64,000 nt of DNA from assembly GCA_964251885.1 (NCBI GenBank), contig CAXUMK010000001.1, positions 22,598-86,597 on the forward strand, given 5' to 3'. Made by a program: the position numbers and the translations under genes. This stretch comes from an uncultured Segetibacter sp. (GTDB lineage Bacteria; Bacteroidota; Bacteroidia; Chitinophagales; Chitinophagaceae). Each line of letters begins with the position of its first letter. Positions within the stretch are counted from its first letter, which is position 1. Positions 2,356 through 58,031 of this stretch are shown in pieces. The notes under the pieces are model-generated. The model saw only the letters and a list, made by a program, of their open reading frames with translations, did no database searches and had not been told where the DNA came from.

Positions 2356-3102
2356 TTAGTGTTGGTTGTTGTTTACCGGCTTGTTACCGGGTAGGGCCAT
2401 TCCATCGGGTATGATGGCTTTTTTTGCGGCCTCTTTAGCTTTCGACTTTTCTGATTTTTTCTTCGCCCTTAATTCCTTTTTACTTTCCTGCCCGGGTGCG
2501 TTTACCCCTTGCCCTTTAACCTTTTGTGCTTTGTTAAAAGGGTCATGCTTTTTCCAGAATAAGTTACCAGTCTTTTTTTCATCTATCAATACGCCATTTT
2601 TATACCTGCTATAGCTAACGGAATCCATTCCGTTGTAGGCCTCTACCTTGCCATTTAGCACGTCACCCCGGTATTTTCCTTTCCTTTTGAGCCCCCCTTT
2701 CGTGTCATACTCTTTAAAAGTACCCTGTCTTAAACCAGCTTTATAGGACACCTGTTCACGTAGCGAACCGTCCGGGTACCAGTAGCTCCAGTCCCCGGCC
2801 TGTAGCCCTTTTTTGTACCTGCCCTGCGCTTTCAGATTCTTGTTCAGGTAATATTCCTTGTAATTGCCATTAAGTAATTTGCCACTATAACCACCCTGTG
2901 TGCTTCGTACCTGCCCACTGCTGTACCAGAAGTACCTTTTTTCCGTACTGATCGAAGGTGCTGATTTTACCTCTTTGATTTCCGCCAGGATAGTCTTGTC
3001 CTTTTCATTCAGGCAAACTCTCTCAAGCCCGAGATCAGGCATTTTTTGTGCCTTTAAACTAAGTGCAGGGAGTAGGCACAGCAGGTAAAATATTTTTTTC
3101 AT
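2356..3102 (-). CDS. Secreted MORN-repeat-variant (YwqK-like) protein with a Lys-rich C-terminal tail
   Basis: Signal peptide MKKIFYLLCLLPALSLKAQ. Repeated G-x-Y-K-E-Y / G-x-W-x-Y-W-Y-P-D-G / G-T-F-K-E-Y-D units match the MORN variant repeat. The tail is KKELRAKKKSEKSKAKEAAKK. Confidence 0.7.
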   Translation of the reverse strand: MKKIFYLLCLLPALSLKAQKMPDLGLERVCLNEKDKTILAEIKEVKSAPSISTEKRYFWYSSGQVRSTQGGYSGKLLNGNYKEYYLNKNLKAQGRYKKGLQAGDWSYWYPDGSLREQVSYKAGLRQGTFKEYDTKGGLKRKGKYRGDVLNGKVEAYNGMDSVSYSRYKNGVLIDEKKTGNLFWKKHDPFNKAQKVKGQGVNAPGQESKKELRAKKKSEKSKAKEAAKKAIIPDGMALPGNKPVNNNQH

Positions 3103-3635
3103 AAGCCCTTACTGATGGTTGTACTGTTTATCTTGATTATTTTCGATTGCCCCTTATACCAAACCCTGACCGAATCCTGTAGGTTCTTAACTAAGCGTAC
3201 CTCGTCTGCCGTTTCCCCCTCACTCATCATCATGTCCTTACCCCGTATGTTGACCATAGCGATAAGACGTTTGTTTTTCGGGTTCCTTACAAAACCTGAG
3301 TAGCGGATAAAAGCCCAGTCTGTCTGAACAGGCTTTAAAGAAAAAGCCGGAACCGGATGAAAAATTGTTAAATGGTTGGCTAAATGATGTGCCGTGTCCG
3401 GTAGCGTTGACCCGCTTCCAAAAGGGTCACGGTAGTTAAGCCTGAGGCGGGCCGTATCAGGCGTGATGCTGTAGTCGTTCAACACTTCTTTTGGTGCGGC
3501 AGCAGGAGCTGCACCAAACCCCCGCTCCTCAACATCAGTATGAAAAATACGGTACAGGATCAGCCCCCAAACTACGAGGACAGCAAAGCCAAGCGCATAA
3601 GTAGCTTTCTTATTTTTCATTCTCCAAGTTTTCAA
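3099..3635 (-). CDS. Bitopic inner-membrane protein (GspC/PilP-like position)
   Basis: 178 aa with an N-terminal TM segment (YALGFAVLVVWGLILYRIF). The C-terminal beta-rich domain (IRGKDMMMSEGETADEVRLVKNLQDSVRVWYKG) resembles secretin-interacting HR/PilP domains. Weak call, mostly positional. Confidence 0.45.
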   Translation of the reverse strand: MKTWRMKNKKATYALGFAVLVVWGLILYRIFHTDVEERGFGAAPAAAPKEVLNDYSITPDTARLRLNYRDPFGSGSTLPDTAHHLANHLTIFHPVPAFSLKPVQTDWAFIRYSGFVRNPKNKRLIAMVNIRGKDMMMSEGETADEVRLVKNLQDSVRVWYKGQSKIIKINSTTISKGL

Positions 3636-29957: not shown

Positions 29958-30918
29958 ATGTCAAGTAATTATGATGATGAGTTGTACTTCAAAACAGAAG
30001 ATCGGCTGGGGCAAATTGCAAGTGGTGAAAAGGAGCCGTTAAAAAAGTTTACCGCATCGCTGTTAATTAACCGAAAAAAATTAGATGAACTAAAAAAGCA
30101 TGTTTCATCAAATCCTTTTAAAGAAAAAAAGGAAGAAATCTTCTTTTTTAAAAAAATCAAGCTCAGGTTCTACAGCCTTCTCATCTTTGAGATAGAATAC
30201 TACCGGCTTGTAAATTATCTTCCTTCAGGTAATAAGGAACAGCTTACGGTGTACTACCAGAAGGAGTTGAAATATATTGAGTGGCTTTTTATGCAAAACC
30301 AGTTCCAGTACCAGTATTTCAGGCTGGGTGCGATTGAGCTTGACCATTTGTACTTTCTCCGCGGGGGCAGAAAAGCAAAGCGTGCTTGTGCCAGAGATAC
30401 CAGAAACCGACCCGGAATTCTCCACGAGCTACGCCCACCTTTTTTCTAAGTTTAAAGCTTATGAAATGTTAAGGGATCATTTACTAAACGAACTTGATAA
30501 CATCAATAAAGCAGACAAAAACACTTTTATCAGGTCCGGTAGAAATTATAAACCACCAAGTTGGACAGGGGATATTATCAATGCCACCGACTTAGGTTAC
30601 AGTTTGTGGGTATCCAATCAGCGAAACAGCAGGAATGCAGAACTAACAGACATCATGCATCGGTTAAGCACTTCTTCAAATGTTGACCTAACGCGTTATA
30701 TGTGTCTGTTCGTGGAAATTAGGGATAGAAAATTAATCAGTAAGACCCGCTTTATCGACCTAATGCGTGATGCTATCAATATACACATACCCTCGCCCCC
30801 CTTGGTATGTATTGTTTTATTGCTGGGAACTTGTTTGCAATTTTCCGCACTTCCTTTTTTGTACTTAGTCTTCAGTGGTAGTTATAAACCAGTTAACGGC
30901 GGGAAGATATCATCTTAA
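29958..30918 (+). pseudogene. RteC-family regulator, frameshifted copy
   Basis: ORFs 29958-30449 and 30277-30918 together parallel the intact RteC downstream (..EIFFFKKIKLRFYSLLIFEIEYY.., QNQFQYQYF.., then ..FSKFKAYEMLRDHL..SWTGDIINATDLGYSLW..). The frame changes at or near the G5 run at 30363-30367. Confidence 0.7.
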
Positions 30919-30929
30919 AATCAAAGAAA

Positions 30930-31829
30930 ATGAACATATTAAAATTCAGCGAACAAAAGTATGGAGAACTGGAAGACCGGTTAGAGACCGTAAACGGATC
31001 ATTGTCATCCGGCTTTGAGAAATTTTCCGAATCCCTTTATACCATCACGAAAAACATCAACGAACTAAAAAAAACGATCTCAGAACATCAATTTGAAAAT
31101 GAAACGCAGGAAATCACTTTCTTTAAAAACGTTTTTCCGAAATTTTATGCCCGGCTGATTTACACATCAGAAGAATACAATATTTCTTCCACAATTCCCG
31201 AAGGGACCGATCAAATGATAAGGGATTATTATTTACAGGAACTGGCGATTGTGAAAAGGAGTTTCAATCATCATCAGTTTGCCTATCAGTATTTCCTTCA
31301 CTCAGAGTCTGCCCTTGATGAAGATTATTTCCTGCGTAAAAACTTCAGGCCATACCATCCCGGCCTGCCACTGCTGGTTTTGGATGAAACAACCGAAACA
31401 AACATGGGCTTCCAGTTTGCAAGATTTAGGGCTTATGAAATGCTGCAGACATTCTTAATCAAAAAAATTCAGTCACTATATCAGCGCCCTGATAACACCG
31501 TCCTTTCAGAATTGCTTACAGGGAATAACAGGCGCTGGACGGGTGAAAAGATCAACTTGATTGAACTTGCCTACGGGATATTTTATACTGGCCAGATGAA
31601 CGATGGGAGAGCAGAAATTAATGATATCGTCGCATGGCTGGAAGAAAGCCTCCATATCGAACTTGGCCGTGCCTACCGGAAATTTGTAGATATACGCAGG
31701 CGAAAAACAGTCAGCTACACAAAATACCTTGATGAGATGCGCGAGGCCATCCTTTATAAAATAGATGAAAACAATCGTTATAAACCAAAGCCTTTTAAAC
31801 GGAAACCCAATGAAAATAACACCCAATAA
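30930..31829 (+). CDS. rteC: RteC-family regulatory protein
   Basis: 299 aa. QEITFFKNVFPKFYARLIY, HHQFAYQYF, FARFRAYEML, RRWTGEKINLIELAYGIFY and RKFVDIRRRK match the Bacteroides conjugative-transposon RteC family as I recall it. Confidence 0.75.
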   Translation: MNILKFSEQKYGELEDRLETVNGSLSSGFEKFSESLYTITKNINELKKTISEHQFENETQEITFFKNVFPKFYARLIYTSEEYNISSTIPEGTDQMIRDYYLQELAIVKRSFNHHQFAYQYFLHSESALDEDYFLRKNFRPYHPGLPLLVLDETTETNMGFQFARFRAYEMLQTFLIKKIQSLYQRPDNTVLSELLTGNNRRWTGEKINLIELAYGIFYTGQMNDGRAEINDIVAWLEESLHIELGRAYRKFVDIRRRKTVSYTKYLDEMREAILYKIDENNRYKPKPFKRKPNENNTQ

Positions 31830-32063
31830 ACACCATTCTTTAACACCATTTAAAAGTTGTCAAACGCTTTTTGCCACAATCCTAACCTTTGATACCATAA
31901 TACAAACAAGATCTTTGACATCCAGGAACGAAGCATTATCCAATTAACAATTGGAAATTTTGCGAAGCTGAGATTACATCAACATAGCGAACGCGCATTG
32001 GCAGCCGAGGGGCCGTATTGTAGAATACGACGTGAGTAGTTCCGAACAAAATATTTATAACCT

Positions 32064-32088
32064 AAAGGGGCCGTGTGCCCCTTTTTTT
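32064..32088 (+). terminator. Intrinsic-terminator-like hairpin (aaaggggc-cgtgt-gccccttt) with a T7 run
   Basis: Stem at 32064-32071 and 32077-32084, with T-run 32082-32088. It lies 13 nt before the ATG at 32101, which argues against the GTG-32032 start in the ORF track. Confidence 0.55.
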
Positions 32089-32100
32089 ATATCCGAAATT

Positions 32101-33012
32101 ATGGAAAATCATCAACTGAAAGCCAGGGAGGTCAAAGAAAATTATTCACTAGCTGACCTTTTAACCCGCCTCGGATACCAACCAGCCAAACGAACGCGAA
32201 ATGAACTATTGTATGTAAGTATGCTACGCGATTCAGACACTACACCATCGTTTTCTGTCAACGATAAACACGGAACTTGGTTCGACTTCGGCGAAGGCAA
32301 AGGTGGGAATATAATTGATTTCGCATTGCGCTATTGGCCGGGCTTAACTTTTGGAGAGGTGCTGGAAAAGATCGTTGGAACATGCGAAAGCTCTGTTTGG
32401 GGTATATCAAATACAATAAAATACAAGAAGCAGCCGGTGACTGAGAAAGAACCCAGCTATCAAATTTTGGATTTAAAAGACCTGGGCAACAATACCGTCA
32501 TTAGCAATTACCTCGAAAGCCGTGGGATCAGCAGCGTCGCCGAAGGCAGGCTAAAAGAGGTTTACTATTATGTTGAAGATGACAACAAAAAACGAAGCAA
32601 CTTCTTCGCGGCCGGCTGGCAAAACGAAAGTGGGGCCTGGGAGATCCGTAATAAGAATTTCAAAGGGTGCCTTGGACATAAAGCGGTTAGCTATATCCCA
32701 AATTCTGAAAAGGGGCTGGCCGTGTTTGAGGGATATTTTAATTACCTGAGCTGGCTCACCGAGAACCCGTTCGCACCGGACAGTGTGCTTGTATTGAACA
32801 CGCTCTCTTTGCTTCAGCCAGGGATTATTAAGGCAAAGGAATTCCTTGACATTGCCCTCTACTTCGATAATGACCCATCAGGACGTCAGGCAACCGCAGA
32901 TTTCAATGCCGCCTTACCTTGTGCCAGAGACTGCTCCGGTATATATAAAGGGTACAATGATTATAATGATTTGATTGTTGCCGAACGGACCGGTTACCAG
33001 ATGGACCGCTGA
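32101..33012 (+). CDS. Toprim-domain DNA primase-like protein of the conjugative element
   Basis: The N-terminal zinc-finger-like region is YSLADLLTRLGYQPAKRTRNELLYVSMLRDSDTTPSFSVNDKHGTWFDFGEGKGGNIIDFA. Toprim motifs are LAVFEGYFNYLSW and LYFDNDPSGRQA. Confidence 0.75.
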   Translation: MENHQLKAREVKENYSLADLLTRLGYQPAKRTRNELLYVSMLRDSDTTPSFSVNDKHGTWFDFGEGKGGNIIDFALRYWPGLTFGEVLEKIVGTCESSVWGISNTIKYKKQPVTEKEPSYQILDLKDLGNNTVISNYLESRGISSVAEGRLKEVYYYVEDDNKKRSNFFAAGWQNESGAWEIRNKNFKGCLGHKAVSYIPNSEKGLAVFEGYFNYLSWLTENPFAPDSVLVLNTLSLLQPGIIKAKEFLDIALYFDNDPSGRQATADFNAALPCARDCSGIYKGYNDYNDLIVAERTGYQMDR

Positions 33013-33179
33013 AAACCGAACAAGTTACCTTTTGGTTTTTTCCCTTGCAAGATGTGCGAATGTCCGACAAAAAACCGCTGCGCTCTATTTTTGCCAGCCA
33101 TCCGCAATCTTGCCCTGAACTTCTCTCCGTACCTCCGCGAAGATCAGGGGGTATCGAAAACTCGCAACTCGTTTTCTCT

Positions 33180-33590
33180 ATGATAGACAATCGCAGCAAA
33201 AAAGGCAGGCCTGTTATGGAGTCCGGCAAACGGACCCGAAAAATTGATGTGAGGTTCACAGAAGATGAATATGAGGCCATACTTGAAATGGAAAGGACGC
33301 TGGATATCCGAAAAACCGACTTGGTACGTACTCGGCTTTTGCAAGATGTAAGGCTTACGATTGTAAACGCCAAAGAATTGATCACGCTTTTAAATAGTAT
33401 TGGGGCAGAAATTGGCAGGTGTGGAAACAATATTAATCAATTAGCTAAATATGCTAATGTGCTTACATTAAAAGGTGTGTTGTCACCGGTAGTCAGCGAA
33501 CGGTTCAATTTGCTTTTCGAGCAATATATCGGCAATCAACAAGCTTTGGAAATTGCATTAAGGAAAGTCATCCGGCTTGCAGGAAAGTAA
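33180..33590 (+). CDS. MobC-like relaxosome accessory protein (ribbon-helix-helix N-terminus)
   Basis: RTRKIDVRFTEDEYEAILEMERTLDIRKTDLVRTRLL has an RHH-like beta-alpha-alpha pattern. ..IGAEIGRCGNNINQLAKYANV matches the MobC family motif. Start chosen at MIDNRSKKGRP; the ORF track starts at 33045. Confidence 0.7.
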   Translation: MIDNRSKKGRPVMESGKRTRKIDVRFTEDEYEAILEMERTLDIRKTDLVRTRLLQDVRLTIVNAKELITLLNSIGAEIGRCGNNINQLAKYANVLTLKGVLSPVVSERFNLLFEQYIGNQQALEIALRKVIRLAGK

Positions 33591-33600
33591 TTAGGTTACA

Positions 33601-33855
33601 GGTTCATTTAGATAAAGTTCGTCAAGAACAAGTTCACAAAGAACTGTCTGAAACTGTACTTGTTCGTTCCGCACTTGATCGGAGAGAATCTGTTCGCCAA
33701 GAACCTGTTCCAAACGAAACTGTCTGCGCAGCACTTGTTCAATAGGAATTTGTTCTAAAATAATTTGTTCACTGAAACCGGTTTACTTATGAACAAGTTC
33801 ACTCCAGACTTGCCCTCAGTGGACAAGTTCATAGTAAACAAATTCCCTCAACCAT
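33601..33855 (+). repeat. Array of 17 in-phase 15-bp units, consensus wGTTC-N5-GAACw (candidate oriT/relaxosome or centromere-like site)
   Basis: Units start every 15 nt from 33601 to 33841 without a phase slip. Examples: aGTTCgtcaaGAACa, aGTTCacaaaGAACt, tGTTCgccaaGAACc, tGTTCcaaacGAAAc, tGTTCaatagGAATt, gTTTActtatGAACa. The array fills the whole MobC-like/relaxase intergenic gap. No ORF of 60 aa or more on either strand. Confidence 0.85.
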
Positions 33856-35176
33856 GATCGTTCATATCCTGCCGACTGCCTCCGGCTTTCCCGCCGTTAA
33901 TTACAATATGGACAAGGTTGACCGGAATAAAGGGGAACTGATGAGGGTATCCGGTTTTGGCGCTTTGCAGGGGTTACAGCAACTGCGGCCTGAAGATTAC
34001 AAAATTTATTTGCGTATGCTTTCGGCAACCAATAAGCATGTCAAACGGCCGCAGTTTCATGCCGTCATTTCCGCGAAAGGAAAAGAATTTAATAAGCATG
34101 AATTAACAGAGATCGCTGAAAAATGGCTAAGTGCAATGGGTTACGGACAACAGCCTTATCTGGTTATTTTCCACAAGGATACCAATAACAACCATGTGCA
34201 TGTCGTGACGACCCGTGTTGATCAGGCAGGTAAAAAAATCAGTGACCGTTTTGAAAAGATCAGGGCAGTGCAGCAATTGAATATCATAATGGGTATTGAC
34301 GTTAAACATAACGCAGCAAACGACATTGCTTCCGCCTTATCCTATGGGTTCGCAACCAAAGCGCAGTTTATGATGGTCCTGGAAAGCTGGGGCTATGTTT
34401 TAAGAGAGATGGACGGTAAGCTGCAGGCGTTCAAATATGGCAAGCAGCAGGGTGAAATCGATTTAAAATCTATTAGCGAAAGGATGCTGACTTACACGCC
34501 CGATAACGACAGGAGGATGCAACTAAAAGCTGTCTTTCATAAATACACGGAGATTGCTTCTACTACCCTCATTAAAGGTCGTTCCGGTTACAGTTCTGAT
34601 TTTTCTGCCTTGCTGAAAAAAAAGTTCGGGATCAACCTGCTGTTTCATGCATCAGGCGATAAGCCGCCGTACGGGTACACGGTTATCGACCATGCCGGAA
34701 AACAGGTTTATAAAGGCGGTGAAATCATACCGTTGACGGAAATGCTGGGGAAACGACATACGAAAGCAGAATTGGCAGAGGAACCTGCATTTTCAGCTGA
34801 TCTAACTAGCGTTCCACAATCGGTCACTCCAGAACATGCCGCTTATTATGCTGCCTTGTTGAAGGCCGCCTTGCATAACTATCAGGAATTGGTTCAGGGC
34901 CTGCAGCACCAGGGCCTAATGATTTGCCGGAACGGCGAAAGTTTTAACCTGGTTGACCCCAGTACAGGTATATCCATTAATATAGAAGGATTACTCAATG
35001 GAAAAGACTACGCAGCAGTAGTCGAAAACTTCAGCCAGTTAAAGGAGACTGGCGAGGAGCTATACCGGCAGCCCCGTCCAGTCCATGGAGTTGACCTGGC
35101 TTCAGATATTGACGACGAAGCTATACATGGCCGCAACCGAAGACGAAAGAAAAAAGCCCGGACAAATTCACGCTAA
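33854..35176 (+). CDS. Relaxase/mobilisation nuclease (MobA/VirD2 superfamily)
   Basis: Histidine triad HKDTNNNHVHVV (HxDxxxxHxH), preceded by FHAVISAKG. 440 aa with a basic C-terminal tail. Confidence 0.88.
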   Translation: MIVHILPTASGFPAVNYNMDKVDRNKGELMRVSGFGALQGLQQLRPEDYKIYLRMLSATNKHVKRPQFHAVISAKGKEFNKHELTEIAEKWLSAMGYGQQPYLVIFHKDTNNNHVHVVTTRVDQAGKKISDRFEKIRAVQQLNIIMGIDVKHNAANDIASALSYGFATKAQFMMVLESWGYVLREMDGKLQAFKYGKQQGEIDLKSISERMLTYTPDNDRRMQLKAVFHKYTEIASTTLIKGRSGYSSDFSALLKKKFGINLLFHASGDKPPYGYTVIDHAGKQVYKGGEIIPLTEMLGKRHTKAELAEEPAFSADLTSVPQSVTPEHAAYYAALLKAALHNYQELVQGLQHQGLMICRNGESFNLVDPSTGISINIEGLLNGKDYAAVVENFSQLKETGEELYRQPRPVHGVDLASDIDDEAIHGRNRRRKKKARTNSR

Positions 35177-35191
35177 TAAACTCATTTATCT

Positions 35192-35821
35192 ATGGTCATT
35201 ATTATCGGCAACCAAAAAGGCGGGGCAGGCAAAAGCACGCTTACCGTCCTGCTTGCCAACTACCTCTCGGCTACCAAAGGCTGTACTGTAACGGTGCTGG
35301 ACATGGACTACCAGCAATCCATTTCGCAAAAGTTTGAAAAAGCGAAAATACTCGAAAACGAAGAGCATTACCAGGTGCTGGCTTTTAGCCTACACGATTT
35401 TCCGCAAATGGAAGGCACCATCCTACGGAACCCCAAAGAGCTTGTATTGATCGACCTCCCCGGAAAGCTGGATGATGATGGCCTGATCCGAGTCTTCAAA
35501 GCCGCTGAAATTGCCATTTGCCCCTTTTCCTACGATGAGTTCAGCTTTGAATCAACCGTTCCGTTCGCTTTAGTGCTTAAAAAGATCAACCCTGACGTTC
35601 AGGTGCTGTTCGTGCCCAACCGAATCAAGGCAAATGTAAGGTATGAGATCAAAGAAGAAGTAAACGAGCAGCTCAACCAGATCGGCATGGTAACAGCTGC
35701 CATTAGTGACCGTATCGATTTCCAGCGCATCGATACCTTTCAGACACCCGTTGCTGTACAGGCGGTCATTGTACCTGTATTTGAACAAATATACCGCGAA
35801 CACATTGAACCCAACTTATGA
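35192..35821 (+). CDS. ParA-family ATPase (TraA-like of conjugative transposons)
   Basis: Deviant Walker A IIGNQKGGAGKSTL. Further motifs LDMDYQQS and LIDLPG. Confidence 0.88.
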   Translation: MVIIIGNQKGGAGKSTLTVLLANYLSATKGCTVTVLDMDYQQSISQKFEKAKILENEEHYQVLAFSLHDFPQMEGTILRNPKELVLIDLPGKLDDDGLIRVFKAAEIAICPFSYDEFSFESTVPFALVLKKINPDVQVLFVPNRIKANVRYEIKEEVNEQLNQIGMVTAAISDRIDFQRIDTFQTPVAVQAVIVPVFEQIYREHIEPNL

Positions 35822-36153
35822 ACGAAATTAAAACTCTCGCCGATCAGCTCAGAAGCCGGATGGCCAAGCCGGATACGCCGGAAAAAACATTAAAGCCCGA
35901 TAAGAAGAAACCCGGCAAGCCGAAAGAAATTCCGGCGATCGTGGAGCAGTTGTGCACGCTCGATGTAAGCGCCAATAAAACAATGATCCATGCACGGGTG
36001 GATAGCCAGACGGCTCATCTGATTCATCACCTGAAGACGGCTACCGGCATCGAGGTCAGCCGACTGATCTGCTTTTCTATCCGTCACTTATTTGAGCAGC
36101 ACCCGGAACTGAAAACTATTATTAAAGAACATTTAGAAAAATTTGAATTATGA
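35818..36153 (+). CDS. Small conjugative-element protein (TraB/TraC position), paralog a
   Basis: 111 aa. The C-terminal half HARVDSQTAHLIHHLKTATGIEVSRLICFSIRHLFEQHPELKTIIKEHLEKF is paralogous to the next ORF. The genes overlap by 4 nt. Confidence 0.6.
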   Translation: MNEIKTLADQLRSRMAKPDTPEKTLKPDKKKPGKPKEIPAIVEQLCTLDVSANKTMIHARVDSQTAHLIHHLKTATGIEVSRLICFSIRHLFEQHPELKTIIKEHLEKFEL

Positions 36154-36413
36154 GCTGGAAATTTTTTCGCGACAGGCGCGACCCGCACTACGATGAGATC
36201 ATTGACCGCATCAAAGCTTACAGCAAACCCGGAGAGCGGCGCTTGGTGCATTTTCGGCTGGATAATCAGACGATATTTCTATTGAACCAGATAAAAGCGG
36301 CAACCGGTGTCAATGTACAAATGATGATGGCTTTTGCGGTTGGTGAACTTATGAAACAACATCCTGAACTAAAAACGATTGTCAAACAGTTTCTTCAAAA
36401 AAATGACATATGA
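36150..36413 (+). CDS. Small conjugative-element protein, paralog b
   Basis: HFRLDNQTIFLLNQIKAATGVNVQMMMAFAVGELMKQHPELKTIVKQFLQKN aligns with the preceding ORF. Confidence 0.6.
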   Translation: MSWKFFRDRRDPHYDEIIDRIKAYSKPGERRLVHFRLDNQTIFLLNQIKAATGVNVQMMMAFAVGELMKQHPELKTIVKQFLQKNDI

Positions 36414-47479: not shown

Positions 47480-47730
47480 TGAACCCTTTACACTTATTGG
47501 AACCCGACGAACGTGAGCGGTATGATTACCTGCAACTGGTTTTTGAGGAAGAATTCGAAGAGGCGCACTTGGCTTTTATGGTTAATGGCATCCTGGTCTA
47601 TGAGCTGCTGAACCTGCTGGCTGCCTGCGCTTACCTGTTTGATGAATTCGGGTTTCCTGAAAATGCTGACAGCCGCTTGCTACGCTACGCAGTTACCGGA
47701 ACTATTATCGAATACCTGGAAGGAGATTAA
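47479..47730 (+). CDS. Small, highly acidic protein (candidate anti-restriction/DNA-mimic)
   Basis: 83 aa with 18 Asp/Glu against 4 Arg and 0 Lys (my count). It includes the EEEFEE cluster. It lies directly upstream of the giant methylase-helicase gene. Confidence 0.55.
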
Positions 47731-47734
47731 TATC

Positions 47735-50700
47735 ATGGCTTTTAATAGTTCAAAAAAACTGGCCGGTAATATCGATGCGCTGCGCATAGCCTTATCCGGA
47801 CAGGAAAGTTACAGCTTTGAAGAAACCGAGATATTGAAAGGCTATTCCGGATTTGGCGGCCTGAAAGCAGTCCTGTTTGATCCAGGTGAAATAGAAGACT
47901 GGGTAAAACAAAACGCATCGGCTAACGACCTGCGTTTATTTCCGCAAATGGTCCGACTGCATGCCTTGTTGCAAGAAAAGCTGAAAGGTGAGGGTTATAA
48001 AACCGCGGTTGATGCCATGAAAAGCAGCATCACAACGGCATTTTATACACCGGACCTGGTGCCAAGCGCGCTTTATGCGGCCATGAAAGAAAATGAAATT
48101 GTGCCGCAACGGTTGTATGAGCCAAGCAGTGGGGCCGGCGTATTCATAACCGAGGCGCTAAAAACTTTCACCGAATTGCAGGAGATCAACGCGGTGGAAA
48201 AGGATGTACTAACCGGCAGCATTCTCACTGCAATCGCCCGTTCATTTCCCGTGAAGTCTCAGGTCCAGGTCCGTGGCTTAGAGGAAACGGCCGTAACGGA
48301 AAAGGGCAGGTATGATTTCATTACCAGCAATATCCCTTACGGGAATTTTCGGGTGTTCGACCCGGCCTACCAGGGCAGCGCAGTCACCTTAAAAATCCAT
48401 GACTACTTTTTTGCAAAGGGACTGGACAAATTAGGGGACGGCGGTTTGCTGGCTTACCTCGTTACCGATGCTTTTTTGAACACCGCTTCCAATTCACTGG
48501 CGCGCAAGCATGTGTTTACTTCAGCAAACTTTATTAGCCTTTCGGTCTTGCCGGACAACCTCATGAAGGACAACGCCAATACTGAAGCACCAAGCCATTT
48601 GCTGGTGGTTCAAAAGAACGATTTCAAAGAAGCGTTTACCGCAGCAGAACAGCTGCTGCTCGAAACAGTCGAACAGGAAAACAGTTACGGAAAGTTTTCA
48701 GTCAATGCCTATATCGAACGCCACCCGGAATTATTATTGGGCGATACCCGGGGCGATGGTAAGAACCAATATGGAAAGGCGAGCAGGATGCTTTGGCAAA
48801 AAGGCGACTTGCAGGCGATCCGGGAACCCCTTTTCCAGCAAGTTGCAGCTGGGCTAAACGCCAATTTTGATATGGACCGTTGGAAGGGCTTGCAGGAAAA
48901 GCTAGCTTCGGAAAAACAGGAAGTAACAAAACCGATAGCAAATGTCCGGCTATTTACCTTTTTAAATCTTCCGGAAGTTACGCCGGATAAAAATGCCGGC
49001 CAGGGGCAGCTCGGGTTATTTGATGCACCCAATATCGACAATAACCTTGCGCAGAGGTACTTGTCCGATTTGGACAGGTCCTTTATTGACCCTTCGACTG
49101 GCAGGCAGATCAGTACGGTCCGTACTACCGTAAGGCCGGACCATGATAGTATTGTCCTCGTCACCGCCAGGGCTAAACAGTCCGGGCGCTATCTCTACAA
49201 ATTATACAGCAATGTCCGGGAACTCGGCTTTTCCAATAAGTGGGTCAGTGGAAACACGCTGGGGTTTGAGTTAAAAGCATTGTCGGCGAAGCTTAAACAG
49301 TTCAGCCATGACTACCGCTATGAGGGTGACAAGAGCCTCGAACCGGCCTTCGAACTAATGGCTGACCGGCCAGTGGCTTTTACCGCGCTCAAACCTTTTT
49401 ATCTCAGGAATACTTTGGTAATCCATGAGGGAAAGGCCGGCCTGATCGATGTGATTGAGAACGGCCAGGCGGATTTTAAGCCGTTTGAAAACCAGCAGGA
49501 CAAGGATTTCTTTCGCATTTATACCGCTTTGCGGGACAGTTACCTCGAATTGCATGCAAAGGAGGCGGAAACTTTACAGGTGCAGCCCCACCTCCGCGTA
49601 CTACTTAACCGGAGCTATGAAAGTTTTACCGGCAAATTCGGTGGCCTCAATAAAAGCAATAACCGCAACCGTTTGCTGCAGGATGCCGCCTTTGGCTTTA
49701 CCATCTTGTCTTCATTGGAACGCCGTGAAAATGATGCCTGGATCAAAGCGGATATCTTTTTCGGTCCGGTATTTCCACACCAGGAAAACCTGCATACCGA
49801 CGATCCGGCAGAAGGGCTGGCCCGCTGCCTGAACGACAAGGGCTTTGTTGACTTGGGCCATATCGGCAAAATGACCGGGTTAAGTGAATTTGAGGTCATC
49901 CGTCAGCTGGACGGCAAAATACTGATGAACGCGGCCAGCAGTAGATGGGAAACAACGGATGGTTACCTGTCCGGTAATGTTGTTCAGAAATTGTCGCTTG
50001 CGGAACAAGCAGGGGCTGACAAACCCGAAGACTTACAGATCGCACGTAGCTTGGCAGCCATGCGGCGCGTTCAGCCGGAAAAGATCCCCTTTGAATTATT
50101 GGATTTTAACCTAGGCGAACGCTGGATGCCGCTCCGTTATTATGAACAGTTTGCCAGTGACCTGTTTAGCCTCGATACCAGCATCGAATATTTTTCCTCT
50201 GTAGATTCCTTTAAAGTACATTACAAAAACGGCAATGCCAAGACAGATGAGGAGTTTGCCATTTTGCCCAAATCAGGCATCAAAATGAAGGGCGCAGCGC
50301 TGCTGGAACATGCGCTCGAAAACACCAGTCCCTATTTCAGCTATAAAATCGGCTCCGGCGATACGGCCATCCGTGTTCCCGATAATGAAGCGATCCAGTT
50401 GGGCCACCAGAAAATCGAATCAATCCGCAGCCGGTTTGAGGAATGGCTGCGCGACCTGCCCGGAACAGAAAAAAACAGCATTGAAGAGTTATACAACAAC
50501 ACCTTCAACTGCTATGTTTTGCGCGAGTATGACGGCAGCCATTTAGTCTTTCCGGGACTGGACAAAAAAGCTTTGGGCATCGAGGACCTTTACAGTTCGC
50601 AGAAAAACGCCGCATGGCGCATCATGCAGAACCGCGGTGCACTCATCGACCATGAAGTAGGACTGGGTAAAACTTTGACCATGATCGTTGCGGCGCAGGA

Positions 50701-53245
50701 GATGAAGCGTTTAGGAATCGTGCAAAAGCCCATGATCCTGGCGCTGAAAGCTAACGTGGGCCAGATCACCGACACATACCGCAAGGCCTATCCGCAGGCA
50801 AAATTACTTTCACCTGGGGAAAATGACTTTACGCCCGTTAAAAGGCAGGGACTGTTTCACCAGATCAAAAACAACAACTGGGACTGCGTCATCCTGACCC
50901 ATGACCAGTTCTGTAAAATACCGCAGTCGCCGGAAATTCAACAGCAGATATTTGAAACGGAACTGGACAATGTCGATAACGACCTGGCAACGCTTAGGTC
51001 TTTAGGCGGCGAAATTTCACGTTCGATGCTCAAAGGCCTGGAACTGCGGAAGACAAACCTTCAAGCTAAGCTAAAATCGGTTTTGTATGCCATCGACAAT
51101 AGAAAGGATACGGGTATCAATTTCCAGGAAATGAACATCGACCACCTCTTTGTAGATGAATCACATAAGTTTAAGAACCTGACCTTTACCACCCGCCACA
51201 ACCGGGTTGCAGGCTTAGGCAACATGGACGGCAGCCAAAAGGCATTGAACATGCTCTTTGCAGTGCGCACCCTGCAGCAGAAGTTTGAGGCCGACCTGTG
51301 CGTTACTTTCCTTTCAGGCACGCCGATATCAAACAGCCTGACTGAAATGTATTTGATCTTTAAATACCTGCGGCCAAATGAGCTGGAAAGGCAGCACATC
51401 TCCAACTTTGATGCCTGGGCAGCGGTATTTGCCAAAAAGACCACGGACTTCGAGTTCTCCGTCACCAACCAGATCATTGCCAAAGAGCGGTTCCGAAATT
51501 TTATCAAAGTGCCGGAACTGGCTTTATTTTATAATGAGATCACCGATTACAAAACCGCTAAACACATAAACCTCGATAAACCTAACCTGGCAGAAACATT
51601 GGTAAATATTCATCCGACACCTGACCAGCAGGCCTTCATTAAAAAATTAATGGAATTCGCGCAGACAGGCGATGCCACCCTGATCGGCCGCGCACCTTTA
51701 ACGGACGAAGAGGATAATGCAAGGATGCTGATCGCTACCAATTATGCCAAGAAGATGTCGGCGGATATGCGGCTGATCGACCCGGGTTATGAAGACCACC
51801 CGGATAATAAAGTAAATGTATGTGCGAGAAAGATCGCTGAGGTTTACAAATTGAGCAACGATCATAAAGGGACTCAGATCGTCTTCAGCGATATCGGCAC
51901 GCCAAAGCCGGACGCATTTAACATTTATGATGCACTTCGGGAAAAGCTGGTCAGGGATTTCGGTATCCCGGGCCATGAAATAACCTACATCCATGAGTGG
52001 ACGGACAGGCAGAAGCCGGAACTTTTCAGGAAAATGAATGCGGGCGAGATCAGGCTGCTATTAGGCAGTACCGAAAAGGCCGGCACGGGGTTAAACGTGC
52101 AGGCGCGGGTTTTAGCGATGCACCATTTTGATACGCCCTGGCGGCCATCCGACCTGGAACAACGCGATGGGCGCGGTGCAAGGCAGGGGAACTGGCTCGC
52201 AAAAAAACATTATGATAATAAAGTGCTGAACTTTATTTATGGCGTCGAACAATCACTGGATGCCTACAAGTTCAACCTACTCAAGAACAAGCAGACCTTC
52301 ATTTCACAGATGAAGAATTGTGAATTGAACGTAAGGACGTTGGATGAAGGCGCACTTGATGAAAAGAGCGGCATGAACTTTTCTGAATACATAGCCATTC
52401 TTTCCGGTGATACCACCCTGCTGGACAAGGCAAAGGTAGAAAAGAAAGTAGCCCAGCTGGAAGGTTGGAAAGCAGCGCACTTCAAAGAAGTAGCGCGTAA
52501 CCGTCAAAACCTGGAAAGGGCCGAAAAGGAACTGTCAGGCACCAGCTTAACGCTGAAAAGCCTGGTCGACGATGAAGCGCTATATAAACAGCAGTTGAAA
52601 TACACTGCGGAAGGTACGAAGCTTAACCCGGTTTCGCTTACAGGATTCAGTCCGGTTGATTCGGAAGCGTTGGGAAAAAAGATCATCGACCTGTACCGGC
52701 AATGGAAACCGGAAAAAGGCCAGCCCGAAGAAAAGCAGATCGGCAGCTTATACGGCTTTGACTTGTTTATCCGGCAGCAGCGGGAGGGATACGAAGAAAG
52801 CGGGCTATTCAAATACCGGTTGCAGAACCACTTTTTTGCCGAAGGGCCGGGCGGTATCAAATACCAGTCAAATAGCGGCCACCCCAATATCGACAACCCC
52901 AAACTAGCGGCGCGCTACTTCCTGAATGCTATCGACAAAATTACCAGCTTGCGGGATAAGTATGAGAAAAAGCAAAGCGAACTCATTGCTGAAATTCCGA
53001 CACTGAAAGAATTAAGCCTGAAAACATTTGAGAAAGAAGGGGAACTTACCGAATGGCGGGTGGAAATGCGCAGGCTGGAAAATGAAATCTCTGCAAAGAT
53101 AAGGGAGACACAGTTGAAGGCCGTTCCCTGCAACAAGGTGGAAGAAGCTATTGAAGATACCCTTGACCATTCCGAGAACCTTAGACCGCTGCGGTTACAG
53201 TCGCTCATGCCCCGCGATTATCCCAGGGAAACCCTCGGCAGATAG
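47735..53245 (+). CDS. Giant N6-adenine DNA methyltransferase / SNF2-type helicase fusion protein
   Basis: MTase motif I is [10 protein letters not shown] and motif IV is TSNIPYGNF. Helicase motifs are DHEVGLGKT (I), [11 protein letters not shown] (II, DExH), [12 protein letters not shown] (V) and [18 protein letters not shown] (VI). 1836 aa from MAFNSSKK (47735). Confidence 0.88.
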
Positions 53246-53833: not shown

Positions 53834-55849
53834 ATGGAAGAAACACACGAGCAGCATAAGCTGCACGGCTTTATGCAATGCGGCGTTTACCTGTCAGTTG
53901 CATTGGAAGCCGCCATTTTTGTTTACAAGCAAGCCCCGTTCTGGGGCTTTTTTTATGGGCCGCTGGAAAAACTGGGCCATGTCATGGTTTACCAGCACTT
54001 GATCTACAGCAAGCTGGCAACACTCCTGCTGATCTGCCTGGTCAGCATCGGCACTTTAGCAAAAAAGAACCAGGAACTTGACCCCAAGAAACACGTTATT
54101 TACCCGCTTGCATTTGGACTATTGCTGTTTTTTGGAAGCCTTTTGCTATATGGCAGGGCATCGGCTTTCGTGTTTGCTTATACCACCTGGTTTAACTTCG
54201 GATATATACTATGTTCCTTGTTAGGTGCCGTAATAGTCAGTGTCTCTATGGACAATGTTTCTAAAATGCTGCACTCTGGTTTGGGCAAGGATATCTGGAA
54301 TGTAGAAGGTGAAAGCTTTATGCAGCCGGTCAAGCCATTAGTCACTCCATATTCGGTAAACATCCCAATGCAGTTCTATTTCAAGGGAAAAGTCCGTTCG
54401 GGCTGGATCAATATCGTCAACCCCTTTCGAGGGACAATTTTGATCGGGACACCGGGGTCAGGAAAGTCGTTCGGAATCATTAACCCCTATATCCGCCAAC
54501 TGATCGCCAAGGAATTTTGCTGTTGCATTTACGATTACAAGTTTCCCGATTTAGGCAAGATCGCTTATTACCACTACCTATTGGCTAAGCAACAGGGCAA
54601 ATGCCTCCACTATTCGTTTAACGTTATCAATTTAAATGACGTAGAGCGGAGCAGGCGGACCAATCCCTGGCGGGCGGACTACCTGCGGACCCTGGCCGAT
54701 GCTTCGGAAGGTGCTGAAGGCTTGGTGGAAGCTATGAAAAAAGGTGATAAATCAGGGGGGAGCGACCAGTTCTTTACCCAATCCGCGATCAACTTTTTAG
54801 CAGCCTGCATCTACTTTTTTAGCAAACATGAAGGCGGCACATACTCCAGCTTTCCTCACGTCCTATCTTTTTTGAACCATTCCTATGAGGATATTTTTAA
54901 TACGCTATTTTCCGAGCCGGAACTGGTATCGCTGTTATCACCCTTTAAGAGCGCTTATGTTACTAAAGCCTTTCCCCAGCTGGAAGGCCAGATCGGTACG
55001 TTGAAGATTTTTATTTCGCGGTTAGCTACGAAGGAAACTTTCTGGGTTTTCTCGGGTGATGATTTCAATTTGAAAATATCGGACAAGTCGGCGCCGGGCA
55101 TCGTGGTACTGGCGAACGACCCCAATACGCAGAATATCAATTCCGCCTGTTATTCGGTCGTCTTGAACCGGCTGACCAAGTTAATTAACAGTAAAGGCAA
55201 CCTGCCTTCGGCACTTATCATCGACGAGATCCCGACCATTTATACCTATAAAATCGAAAACTTACTGGCTGTCGCCCGAAGCAATAAAGTAGCGATTATT
55301 ATGGGCCTTCAGGAACTGCCGCAGTTCAATCAGCAGTATGGTAAAGATACGGCCGCGACCATCACTTCCGTGGTCGGTAATGTGCTGGCAGGTTCGGTAC
55401 GCAACAAAGAAACACTGGACTGGCTGGAACGGTTGTTCGGCAAGAACAAACAGATCGGCGAAAGCCTTTCCATCGACCGCAACAAAACCTCGATCTCCTT
55501 ACAGGAAAAGCTGGAACCCCTAATACCGGCAGGTAAAATGGCCGCACTCAATACCGGTGAAATGGTCGGGCTGATTGCGGCTGATGTACAGGAGGTTTAT
55601 ACAGGTAAGTTTGCAACATCGGCCATAAACTGTAAAGTTAACCTACCCGCTGCCGAACTCTCTGCCGAGGAAAAAGGTTACCGCGATCTACCCGTTTATT
55701 ATGATTTTGCCGGCCGCAAGGAAGAAATCCTACGCGAGAACTTTATGCGCATCAACAGTGAGATAGATGCCATCGTTGAAGGATTCCGCAAGCCGGTCCC
55801 GCAGGTCCAGGTGCTGCCTAAAGGCAGTATGAAAGCCAAAACCAATTAA
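53834..55849 (+). CDS. Type IV coupling protein (TraG/TraD/VirD4 family)
   Basis: N-terminal TM helices. Walker A ILIGTPGSGKSFGIINP and Walker B ALIIDEIPTIY. 671 aa. Confidence 0.88.
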   Translation: MEETHEQHKLHGFMQCGVYLSVALEAAIFVYKQAPFWGFFYGPLEKLGHVMVYQHLIYSKLATLLLICLVSIGTLAKKNQELDPKKHVIYPLAFGLLLFFGSLLLYGRASAFVFAYTTWFNFGYILCSLLGAVIVSVSMDNVSKMLHSGLGKDIWNVEGESFMQPVKPLVTPYSVNIPMQFYFKGKVRSGWINIVNPFRGTILIGTPGSGKSFGIINPYIRQLIAKEFCCCIYDYKFPDLGKIAYYHYLLAKQQGKCLHYSFNVINLNDVERSRRTNPWRADYLRTLADASEGAEGLVEAMKKGDKSGGSDQFFTQSAINFLAACIYFFSKHEGGTYSSFPHVLSFLNHSYEDIFNTLFSEPELVSLLSPFKSAYVTKAFPQLEGQIGTLKIFISRLATKETFWVFSGDDFNLKISDKSAPGIVVLANDPNTQNINSACYSVVLNRLTKLINSKGNLPSALIIDEIPTIYTYKIENLLAVARSNKVAIIMGLQELPQFNQQYGKDTAATITSVVGNVLAGSVRNKETLDWLERLFGKNKQIGESLSIDRNKTSISLQEKLEPLIPAGKMAALNTGEMVGLIAADVQEVYTGKFATSAINCKVNLPAAELSAEEKGYRDLPVYYDFAGRKEEILRENFMRINSEIDAIVEGFRKPVPQVQVLPKGSMKAKTN

Positions 55850-56297: not shown

Positions 56298-58031
56298 ATG
56301 GGTTTAACTACAAGAGATGGATCTATAAATAGATTCGTGCTACTGTGCATTTTTTGCCTGCCTTTGCAGCATTTAGAACTTACATCCGGATACGGTTACC
56401 GGTTGCACCCCACAACCGGAAAATATGCTTTTCATTCCGGGATAGACCTGCGCGCTAGGCATGATACCGTTTTTGCAGTCCTGTCCGGCCGTTTGGCTTC
56501 TGTAGGTTATGATGCCTTGACAGGCGTTCACATACGCCTAACCAGCGGCGAGTTCACTTTTCTTTATGGCCACCTTTCACAAGTCTTTGTGCTGCCAGAC
56601 GATTCAGTTAGGGCAGGCACCCCACTGGGCATAACGGGCGCCACCGGGCGTGTTACAGGTGAACATTTACATTTTGGTATCACCTACGACGGTTTACCCC
56701 TCAACCCACTGCTATTCTTACACCGCTTATTAAATAAAGTTAAACAAATCAAACAAGGAGAAAAATCAATGAACACACCTTTTAAACCACTGTCCGAACA
56801 GATTGCAGGAAAGATGATCGCGGACCTAAAAGCCGGAACCTCCATTTTTCAACGGCCCAACAACAGTATGAACTCGGCCCTGCCATTCAACATCGAGAGC
56901 GGTCGCCGCTATGCCGGGCCTTCCGCATTGGTATTAATCATGCAAAAGCGGGACGACCCACGATGGGCCACTTCTAACCAGGCAAACCGCAACCATACCG
57001 CTGTGGTGAAAGGCGCGACCGGTACGCTGATCAACTTTATGTCCAGCTATGAATATCAGAAGGTAGTTGACGAAAAAGGTGAGCCGGTATTAAAAGACAA
57101 CGGTAAACAAAGAACCGAACGCGTGAAACTGAATGAGCCAAAGCAGGTGGATGCCTGGCTGTTCAACGGCGAACAGCTACGCAAGCTGCCCAAATGGGAA
57201 AAGGAACCGATGGACTTATCTCCTGCCGAACGGGCACAGGTTATCCTGGACAACAGCAAAGCCGTGGTTGAGCATGGCGGCGACGATATGTTTTACGATA
57301 CCCGCTCGGACACCATCGTACTGCCCGAAATGGAACAGTTTAAAGACCCGGAACAGTATTTTGCCGAGGCGCTGCACCAGCTCGCGCATCGGATATCAGC
57401 TGAAGACCGCTTGAACCGTCCATTGAACGTGGCTACCGATCCCGTTGCAACGATCCGCGAAGAATTACGTACCAATTTGGCTTCACTGTTTTTAAGCAAG
57501 GAACTGAACTTGCCTTACGAACTTAATGACCATGTAGGGTATGTGAACAGTTGGGCGCAAATCCTGAAAGAAGAACCCGCTGAGCTTTTTAAAGCCGCAT
57601 CGGATGCCCAAAAGATTGTTGACCACATTATGGCCTTTGAACAACGGGTTGAAGAAAAACAGGAAATTGCTGAAATAAAAGAATTGCCGGAAGGTATAGG
57701 GCAATCCGGGGACATTGTCGATAACGTGCAAGACATCCCTATAATTAATCCGGAGAGGCTCAAAAAAGGCGAGGTCATCCCACATAATGGCACGGAGTTC
57801 AAGGTATTGGCCGAACTCAAAAACAATGTTTACAACATGCAGGACCTGTCTGATAAGCGTAAGTTTAAAATGGGTTCAAATTCAGGGTTATTTGCTTCCC
57901 TGATCGAAGCACGCAATAGCTCTCAGGAGATCAGCACGGGTATGGTAGCAGATCAGGAAGTGCATGAAGCCGAAGAAGCAGGTATGGAACAAGACAACGA
58001 AGTGGATAACGCCTATCAAATGCAGCGATAA
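56298..58031 (+). CDS. M23 peptidase domain fused to an ArdC-like (ssDNA-binding N-domain + degenerate zincin) antirestriction-type protein
   Basis: M23 motifs are TSGYGYRLHPTTGKYAFHSGIDL (HxxxD) and GEHLHFG (HxH). The ArdC-N-like part is SEQIAGKMIADLKAGTSIFQRP..SGRRYAGPSALVL..DPRWATSNQA..VVKGATGT. The metallopeptidase-like part is FYDTRSDTIVLPE..YFAEALHQLAHRISAEDRLNRP, with HQLAH at 57375-57389 where the family has HExxH. Confidence 0.75.
   Translation: MGLTTRDGSINRFVLLCIFCLPLQHLELTSGYGYRLHPTTGKYAFHSGIDLRARHDTVFAVLSGRLASVGYDALTGVHIRLTSGEFTFLYGHLSQVFVLPDDSVRAGTPLGITGATGRVTGEHLHFGITYDGLPLNPLLFLHRLLNKVKQIKQGEKSMNTPFKPLSEQIAGKMIADLKAGTSIFQRPNNSMNSALPFNIESGRRYAGPSALVLIMQKRDDPRWATSNQANRNHTAVVKGATGTLINFMSSYEYQKVVDEKGEPVLKDNGKQRTERVKLNEPKQVDAWLFNGEQLRKLPKWEKEPMDLSPAERAQVILDNSKAVVEHGGDDMFYDTRSDTIVLPEMEQFKDPEQYFAEALHQLAHRISAEDRLNRPLNVATDPVATIREELRTNLASLFLSKELNLPYELNDHVGYVNSWAQILKEEPAELFKAASDAQKIVDHIMAFEQRVEEKQEIAEIKELPEGIGQSGDIVDNVQDIPIINPERLKKGEVIPHNGTEFKVLAELKNNVYNMQDLSDKRKFKMGSNSGLFASLIEARNSSQEISTGMVADQEVHEAEEAGMEQDNEVDNAYQMQR

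Follow-up and report, generated by a model that had tools for sequence, protein, structure and literature searches.

We analyzed a stretch of 64,000 nucleotides (hereafter the window) from an uncultured Segetibacter sp. (assembly GCA_964251885.1, contig CAXUMK010000001.1). By its gene content, established from Pfam and NCBIfam scans and a map of the open reading frames (ORFs), the window holds an integrative conjugative element (ICE) that is CTnDOT-like: RteC and a primase are followed by MobA, the array, the MobB relaxase, the ParA-like TraA, two small ribbon-helix-helix (RHH)-like proteins, and tra genes. The array, at 33601–33855 and with no strand assigned, is 255 bp long and consists of 17 in-phase 15-bp units of the form x-GTTC-N5-GAAC-x (wGTTC-N5-GAACw). 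We put at about 0.5 the probability that it is a non-coding, cis-acting multi-site protein-docking platform, centromere-like or an accessory of the transfer origin (oriT), coated by RHH dimers. The likeliest binder would be a 111-aa ParA-adaptor-like protein of the same element, with MobA as its main rival.

The array begins 10 nt past the mobA stop codon, and the start codon of mobB (ATG, 33854) lies inside unit 17. An earlier note on this DNA had described 17 units in unbroken phase; lag autocorrelation and cutting into units both bear this out from 33601 to 33855. The note's transcription of 33591–33856 agrees with the sequence, and so does its account of the surroundings: an RHH gene upstream, a relaxase gene downstream, and a ParA gene starting at 35192. 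Autocorrelation, which the note had proposed as a check, gave z scores of 7–8 at lags 15, 30, 45, and 60, the strongest periodic signal of the 64 kb. In a 266-nt test region the identity at lag 15 was 0.478, versus 0.259 in 2,000 dinucleotide-preserving shuffles (z = 7.9); lags 30, 45, and 60 reached z = 7.0–7.2 and every other lag stayed below 3. When the whole window was scanned in 240-nt sliding windows (global mean 0.275, window standard deviation 0.035), the array was the top lag-15 stretch (0.496; runner-up 0.379). Tandem Repeats Finder reported just 2.5 copies, because the units are degenerate.

The information content of the units is highest at positions 2–5 and 11–14, where the tendency to GTTC and GAAC that had been claimed is indeed found. 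The left box is an exact GTTC in 11 of the 17 units. The right box is an exact GAAC in 4 and has at most one mismatch in 12 of the 17 (about 3 mismatches are expected by chance). Together, 16 GTTC/GAAC tetramers were observed against 2.0 expected; units 4, 9, 15, and 17 are weak. The two best units, exact copies of GTTC-N5-GAAC at 33617–33629 and 33632–33644, are joined by the junction palindrome GAACAAGTTC at 33626–33635, and a third exact unit lies at 33692–33704. Junction palindromes between neighboring units, also predicted from GAAC-N2-GTTC, do occur: GAACWWGTTC is present twice in the array, the second exact copy being at 33791–33800. The earlier view of each unit as a 15-bp inverted-repeat operator holds as far as the palindromy goes. 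The functional unit is better taken to be the 4-bp box, two per unit, as relatives use 8- or 16-bp periods; counted this way, the array holds 34 boxes whose centers are spaced alternately by 9 and 6 bp. Exact GTTC-N5-GAAC occurs three times in the array and once elsewhere in the window. This sole outside copy, GTTCGGCAAGAAC at 55435–55447, lies within the type IV coupling protein gene (53834–55849) and is probably there by chance.

The array does not encode a protein. In the window and in 11 relatives (12 loci), every one of the six frames is interrupted by stops, and six-frame translation confirmed the TAG at 33743 on which the earlier note had based its statement that the array is non-coding. 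Indels of 1 nt between close array orthologues shift the frames. A 47-aa minus-strand ORF (33591–33734) reads as V-L-x-E-Q pentads; it is broken in two close relatives (L082 and L083; such handles denote the compared loci). We thus rejected a protein-coding repeat of five residues, given the stops everywhere, a frame that is not kept in the 12 loci, and the frameshifting indels. A known structured RNA family was rejected as well: an Rfam scan of the array gave no match at E ≤ 1, and RNAalifold on four orthologous arrays found 0 compensatory pairs among 85 predicted, with a covariation term of −1.3 kcal/mol. The RNA fold of the array is more stable than that of shuffles (z = −3.8), as expected from in-phase palindromes. 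Within the array we found no sigma-70-like site, no terminator-like site, and no Bacteroidetes-type −7 box. Because the only −7 box of this type between primase and relaxase is TATTTTTG at 33086–33093, the array is probably part of the mobA–mobB transcript.

The comparison set comprised 80 genome loci, 80 metagenome loci, five contigs from close relatives, and three plasmids; the genome and metagenome loci are 160 of the roughly 900 (358 genome and 536 metagenome hits) to which the searches led. In elements whose relaxase is 94% and 75% identical, an orthologous array can be aligned unit for unit. The array of the window is 86% identical to that of L082, whereas four-fold degenerate sites of the flanking genes are 57% (mobA), 58% (mobB), and 67.5% (parA) identical between the same two elements. 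By this comparison, purifying selection acts on the array and its spacers as strongly as on coding genes. In L084 (72% relaxase identity) the motif is kept and the units can no longer be aligned one to one, the pattern of an array that turns over through gain and loss of units. Between 33601 and 33853, comparison with L082 and L083 showed that unit positions 6 and 9 are the most variable and that positions 7 and 10 are almost invariant. Substitutions fell on the three triplet phases 9, 23, and 38 times, in a small sample of non-independent relatives. Their pattern is asymmetric about the center of the palindrome and would fit a minus-strand frame, yet that frame is closed.

Box arrays are widespread among related elements. 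In 83% of 70 full-length genome loci, the 4 kb upstream of the relaxase gene contain a periodic stretch above the control (the 95th percentile of the 5 kb downstream). A search of homologous elements for the 15-bp periodicity, as the earlier note had advised, found the same mobA–mobB gap occupied in nearly every element of the Mucilaginibacter clade. The box itself differs: GTTC/GAAC in the window, L002–L005, and many metagenome loci; GGYTM/KAACC in L001 and L010; TTC/GAA in L009; GATA/TATC in L011, L013, L016, L018, L021, and L119; and a unit containing CCGGG in L007, L008, and L014. Some elements of this clade carry 8-bp direct repeats (GNTA plus four bases) instead. In Pedobacter, Sphingobacterium, Parapedobacter, and Algoriphagus, mobA adjoins mobB and an array of 150–450 bp lies just after the primase gene, with a period of 8 or 16 bp and usually GATA/ATAT boxes; in most relatives the array begins at the primase stop codon. 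Across all arrays the most enriched tetramers are GAAC/GTTC, ATAT, GATA, GCTA, GTTA, and GCTG. A common box G-N-T-M (GTTC, GATA, GCTA, GTTA) is set in three geometries: box-N5-box′-N2 (15 bp), box-N6-box′-N2 (16 bp), and direct box-N4 (8 bp). The array had been called unusually long and regular. That is so beside textbook RHH centromeres; among the arrays of its own family, which extend to ∼450 bp and 56 units of 8 bp, it is not exceptional. An extra ORF of ∼100–124 aa, for example one ending in KWIKGYKDLENDLRKI, lies between mobA and the array in some members of the Mucilaginibacter clade, L001, L007, L008, L013, and L014; it is absent from the window.

Upstream of mobA we found a second conserved feature, an oriT-like core with a promoter module (33029–33177, plus strand) in which ∼130 bp are conserved. 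It comprises a T-tract (CTTTTGGTTTTTT, 33029–33041), the elements TGCAAGATGTG (33046–33056) and TGTCCGACAAAAAA (33061–33074), an inverted repeat GCAAGA/TCTTGC (33047–33052 and 33108–33113), the −7 box, and two hairpins, at 33113–33149 and at 33155–33177, the latter with the invariant loop TCGCAACTC. Almost all loci have this core, placed upstream of mobA or of a cargo gene inserted before mobA. The shared sequences are yCTTTTGGTTTTT, TGCAAGwTGTG, TGTCCGACAAAA, ATCTTGCC, and the hairpin with its loop; they are found from Mucilaginibacter to Algoriphagus and are recognizable even in the Bacteroides fragilis plasmid pBF9343. Among 45 diverse copies, GCAAGw pairs with wCTTGC ∼56 nt away, the sixth pair being A-U in 24 copies and U-A in 19. 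In the loop hairpin all six pairs show double compensatory changes, in 3–21 sequences each, and five of the six show them in at least 7. Judged from this conservation, the region 33042–33177 probably holds nic and the core of oriT; alternatively, the hairpin may act in a 5′-leader RNA. The core is a better nic candidate than the array because its inverted repeat stands next to an invariant nick-like region. The array varies in sequence and position between elements and the conserved inverted repeat lies elsewhere (33047–33177), so the array appears to be oriT-adjacent and not the core. Many Sphingobacterium, Parapedobacter, and Pedobacter elements have an ORF of ∼350–370 aa between core and mobA (L025 at 2473–3597, L023, L026–L029, L032–L035, and others), so that the core hairpin there precedes this ORF and not mobA. 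In L025 the inserted ORF resembles a cytosine-C5 DNA methyltransferase gene (GGFPCQPFS motif).

The array motif recurs beside the core. In the window a solitary junction-type box pair, GAACAAGTTA (33018–33027), directly follows the primase stop codon and abuts the T-tract. Every element carries boxes of the type found in its own array at this place, from one to three of them immediately upstream of the T-tract (GTAACTGGCTA in L010, ACCGGGTTA in L007, CCGGATACATAGATAC in L021). Scored with the matrix of its own array, the core-adjacent segment had a mean z of 2.0 against random segments. By rank the score was not element-specific, because many loci share the GTTC class. By this placement, the array motif is a recognition element that is also set beside the conserved core.

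Three small RHH-type proteins are candidates for reading the boxes. MobA (136 aa, 33180–33590, plus strand) is a confident NikA-like RHH protein with the MobC motif by Pfam and NCBIfam, a relaxosome accessory protein whose beta-strand reads KIDVRFT. The earlier note had proposed it as the array binder. We do not favor this: the core sequence co-varies with the MobA clade (TGTCCGACAAAA versus TGTCCGTACAGC), so MobA plausibly reads the core and not the boxes, and the 111-aa protein is at least as good a candidate. The latter is encoded just after parA (35818–36153, plus strand). An invariant helix at its N terminus (K5, LADQLR12) is followed by a disordered Lys/Pro linker, after which a strand-like segment bearing invariant H58 and R60 leads into a helical, RHH-like C-terminal domain. 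The helix-helix domain was modeled with a pLDDT of 78, and its top Foldseek matches were all RHH antitoxins (ParD2, ParD1, PrpA; target TM 0.55–0.65, E > 1). An 87-aa paralogue of the RHH-like domain follows (36150–36413, plus strand); it lacks the N-terminal tail and is absent from several array-bearing relatives.

The ATPase encoded upstream of these two genes is ParA-like and TraA-like (209 aa, 35192–35821, plus strand). It has a deviant Walker A motif (KGGAGKST) and no N-terminal DNA-binding domain, as is typical of the small Walker-type ParA proteins of type Ib systems; Pfam matched it to CbiA/ParA/MipZ and NCBIfam to ParA_partition (E = 2e-21, 76 bits; cutoff 180). We prefer the 111-aa protein as box reader because a ParA adaptor needs a multi-site mark on its cargo, and the array is the only strong periodic array of the 64 kb able to serve one. 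A further reason is that NikA-type accessory proteins, to our knowledge, normally use few sites. We also prefer it because 4-bp boxes at an 8-bp period are the known architecture of the RHH centromere parH (PMC3130281), and because a pair of ParA and an RHH-like protein on the Pedobacter plasmid pA27BH1 has 8-bp GATAT boxes upstream. This pair (L086, 135–1260) consists of a separate second ParA (248 aa) and a small downstream gene, as found also on an M. robiniae plasmid (L168, 120–1131; 248 aa). On pA27BH1 the small partner is RHH-like by inspection of its translation only and the upstream GATAT boxes number about seven; the locus is likely a genuine type Ib partition locus beside the conjugation-module ParA. 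The conjugation module of the same plasmid, which has its own par system, has about 3 boxes left, by the core.

We propose the following mechanism. RHH dimers of a small element-encoded protein would bind one per box and coat the ∼255 bp cooperatively. The coating protein would most likely be the 111-aa product, possibly with its 87-aa paralogue, and its conserved N-terminal tail would recruit and stimulate the ParA-like TraA. The coated array would then act as a type Ib-like centromere beside the transfer origin, and the excised circle would be positioned or segregated, or the relaxosome-bound oriT delivered to the type IV secretion machine. Where the array lies between mobA and mobB, as in the Mucilaginibacter clade, it would sit inside the probable mobA–mobB transcript, so the coated array would throttle read-through into mobB, parA, and tra, a negative feedback. 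The array, its box architecture, the selection on it, and its linkage to the core are observed here; protein binding, cooperativity, ParA recruitment, and the roadblock effect are inferred. The earlier note had offered a nucleoprotein platform, either an oriT scaffold or an ICE centromere. A platform of this kind remains the best explanation, given the family-wide arrays and the selection on them; the array is probably not the oriT core, given the separate core at 33042–33177.

Several observations weigh against this proposal. The 111-aa protein has no Pfam match and no significant PDB sequence match. Comparison by hhalign found no similarity to ParG or to the Pedobacter plasmid RHH protein (probability 0.7% against one ParG sequence, not taken from a database record). 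With the Foldseek matches at E > 1, an RHH fold is only weakly supported. Within the clade H58 and R60 of the 111-aa protein and the D, R, and T of the MobA strand are all invariant while box positions 2 and 4 vary. With both candidate reading heads invariant, covariation cannot choose between the two proteins. Pairwise identities of the primase, MobA, MobB, ParA, and the 111-aa protein likewise follow phylogeny and do not discriminate by box class. Between clades the strand comparison is ambiguous, and the MobA strand tracks the box type at least as well: E-R-S goes with GATA/TAT, K-R-T with TATA, and K-K-T (the K-x-K clade) with CCAA. Some 1.3 kb, taken up by the relaxase gene, separate the array from parA downstream of it, whereas classical type Ib sites are directly upstream. 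Conjugative plasmids with a separate par system retain the pair of ParA and small protein, which argues for a role in transfer rather than segregation. Finally, the conserved N5 spacers of individual units and the period-3-like substitutions are left unexplained by a simple reading of boxes.

The parH site of plasmid TP228, which adjoins an operator with 8 further boxes, resembles the array in several ways. Its boxes have an 8-bp period and bind the RHH protein ParG, which loads ParF through its N-terminal tail (PMC3130281). In both systems the gene of a small ATPase of the ParA type comes before that of a small protein whose N-terminal tail is flexible (as predicted for the 111-aa protein), and degenerate 4-bp boxes with short spacers (cooperatively coated in the case of parH) lie upstream of the operon; the 8-bp period of parH is exactly that of the relatives of the window element. 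The systems differ in that the 111-aa protein has no detectable similarity to ParG, mobA and mobB are placed between array and parA, the boxes are paired as inverted repeats at 9/6-bp spacing, and the element is an integrative one whose array accompanies an oriT-like core; there are 34 boxes here versus 12 in parH (PMC3130281).

Among transfer systems, R388 has an oriT-adjacent array whose small binding protein works with a ParA-like ATPase, as we propose here. Its binding protein, StbA, uses a helix-turn-helix domain and not an RHH. The R388 repeats, unlike ours, are direct and fewer, and the stb genes are not embedded in a relaxase operon. The stbDR site consists of two sets of five 9-bp direct repeats with an 11-bp period, adjacent to oriT; StbA and StbB balance segregation against conjugation, and the motif occurs also at other promoters (PMC3098194). 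The system in the window can also be likened, by its architecture, to VirC1–VirC2–overdrive of Agrobacterium. VirC1, a ParA-like ATPase, and VirC2, its partner with an RHH fold, act next to the nick site at overdrive, where they stimulate relaxosome assembly and recruit the complex to the secretion machine. In contrast to a phased array of tens of boxes, overdrive is one enhancer of ∼24 bp. The retention of the ParA pair on plasmids with a par locus of their own points to a role in transfer, like that of VirC1/VirC2 at overdrive, of StbA/StbB at stbDR (PMC3098194), or of the Par proteins of NAH7, which act at oriT (PMC12421886). Partition systems on ICEs also exist, as in srpMRC of SXT (PMC4489591).

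Other plasmid systems are alike in part and differ in their details. Our array has another repeat length and motif than those of pSM19035 and pB171, which belong to partition loci without linkage to oriT. In these plasmids RHH dimers of omega (pSM19035) and ParB (pB171, at parC1 and parC2) bind one per short repeat, direct or inverted; the repeats are 7 bp long for omega and 6 bp, in arrays of 17 and 18, for pB171, and the sites serve as both centromere and operator. The TraM and TraY sites of F and the oriT direct repeats of pAD1 and pAM373 are element-specific repeated sites that flank a conserved nick region and give transfer specificity. They differ from our array in having few sites, or 6-bp repeats at 11-bp periodicity, other proteins, and no ParA partner. 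The window holds the same kind of element as CTnDOT, with RteC, mobA, mobB, and traA onward, but its mob and tra operons are collinear where those of CTnDOT are divergent. CTnDOT and CTn341 carry RteC, MobA, the MobB relaxase, and traA onward, with oriT by the mob genes; according to a review, traABCD of such elements were never mutated and the functions of TraA–D are untested (PMC3809561).

An alternative that we regard as possible, though on the unlikely side, is that MobA reads the array: MobA would coat it together with the core-side box pair, bend or wrap oriT, and aid nicking, like TraY and TraM of F and TraK of RP4, with ParA uninvolved. MobA is a confident RHH protein encoded 10 nt before the array, a box pair abuts the core in every box class, arrays lie near core and mobA in both arrangements, and the strand residues change with box type between clades. 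TraK covers ∼180 bp of the RP4 oriT, and StbA, which binds the stbDR repeats, is a TraK homologue. However, the clade strand K-I-D-x-R-F-T stays nearly invariant while the arrays use GTTC, GATA, or CCGGG-type units, and the co-variation of the core with the MobA clade suggests that MobA reads the core. We also know of no accessory protein of the NikA/TraY/TrwA type that uses 34–100 boxes and not one to few sites.

We consider it improbable that the array serves replication or priming, as iterons of an origin of the excised circle or as a place on the transferred single strand where the neighboring DnaG-like primase would land. The array starts at the primase stop codon in most relatives, many of their 8- and 16-bp arrays are AT-rich like unwinding elements, and ICEs can replicate after excision (PMC4489591). 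However, the Pfam and NCBIfam scans showed no Rep-type initiator at the locus, periods of 8 and 15 bp and palindromic boxes are atypical of iterons, and primase identity does not follow box class. Plasmid pBF9343 moreover has both 22-bp iterons, beside its rep gene, and box-bearing regions, which makes these distinct elements. An iteron-type origin (17–22-bp direct repeats by a rep gene) was rejected, since the locus has 15-bp palindromes and no Rep gene. A function as structured single strand, either in an mRNA leader that controls mobB or as part of the transferred strand that is rich in hairpins, seems more improbable still. The array is probably transcribed (from the −7 box at 33086), folds more stably than shuffles, and is conserved at all positions between orthologues, spacers too. 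But in-phase palindromes would give that folding energy in any case, the pairing lacks compensatory changes and an Rfam match, and where two units pair in the fold, nothing in the design makes their spacers complementary. Most relatives have the array upstream of the core that bears the promoter, and therefore outside the transcript. Finally, it is hardly credible that the array is a functionless minisatellite-like expansion or the remains of a gene of five-codon repeats. Fifteen is a multiple of 3, a minus-strand ORF reads as pentads, the orthologue substitutions are uneven over codon-like phases, and units turn over between elements that are 72% identical in relaxase. These features are offset by stops in every frame, no frame conserved in the 12 loci, 1-nt indels in close orthologues, conservation far above that of neutral sites, and arrays in 83% of related loci with three phased geometries and a shared box.

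Arrays of repeats on which RHH or other small proteins dock, at centromeres and beside oriT, are already known. What is new here is the 15-bp palindromic geometry, the array size, and the placement in the mob operon, and also that, throughout a family of Bacteroidota elements, variable box arrays are coupled to an oriT-like core that is conserved. In the searchable literature we found no description of a box array in CTnDOT-type elements or of variable arrays coupled to an oriT-like core. In Bacteroidota, antibiotic resistance is carried mainly by CTnDOT-type elements; a ParA-like TraA and a tail-bearing small protein, linked to a selected array that is found across the family next to a conserved oriT-like core, give a testable model of how the transfer origin is positioned or regulated. 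A signature of G-N-T-M boxes at 8, 15, or 16 bp near GCAAGwTGT...CGCAACT could aid oriT annotation and element delimitation, in genomes and metagenomes alike. The core supplies a candidate nic region for this relaxase family, and the natural variants in box type, period, and position suit specificity-swap experiments. A wider speculation, which we hold tentatively and regard as doubtful, is that giant arrays throughout the phylum (to ∼56 8-bp units; 17 15-bp units) dock a TraA(ParA)/TraB-like module. In it, a partition-type machine would do more than segregate DNA and would couple the oriT-relaxosome to secretion, the array, having moved into the mob operon in the Mucilaginibacter clade, would there also be a dosage-sensing roadblock, and box type and geometry would mark element identity like incompatibility groups.

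Full-length RteC (30930–31829) is preceded just upstream by a 163-aa fragment matching its N-terminal part (29958–30449), which hints at a partial duplication or at a copy that has decayed, close to what is probably the element's left part. The primase-like protein (32032–33012, plus strand) combines a CHC2 zinc finger with Toprim. The relaxase encoded by mobB (440 aa, 33854–35176, plus strand) belongs to PF03432 and is nearest to Bacteroid_MobB, under the cutoff of that model; its homologues come mainly from Mucilaginibacter and other Sphingobacteriaceae. The genes for the 111- and 87-aa proteins are followed by DUF4134-type small membrane proteins (Pfam on the L081–L083 orthologues) and a TraG/VirB4 ATPase, and farther along by a SNF2-type helicase, the coupling protein, and an ArdC-like protein. 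The helicase is a 1868-aa SNF2/helicase protein (47639–53245) downstream of the tra genes. The protein at 56298–58031 joins three parts: an M23 peptidase, the N-terminal domain of ArdC, and a metallopeptidase of the zincin-like kind. This fusion and the SNF2/helicase protein are cargo typical of leading regions or of anti-restriction. To the left of the RteC genes, minus-strand genes for a secretin (GspD-like) and a T2SSE/PilB-type ATPase (22599–26004) probably belong to the host chromosome or to a separate module, and not to the conjugative element.

Plasmid pBF9343 (L167; 3044–3165, 3400–4040, and 4567–5001) has five 22-bp iterons (AAGTTGGGTTTTTGTCCCTAGA) after its rep gene and about a dozen TGATACC boxes scattered on either side of mobC. 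Its 435-bp gap between mobC and the relaxase gene partly duplicates the region upstream of mobC and has an AT-rich end with 15-bp periodicity.

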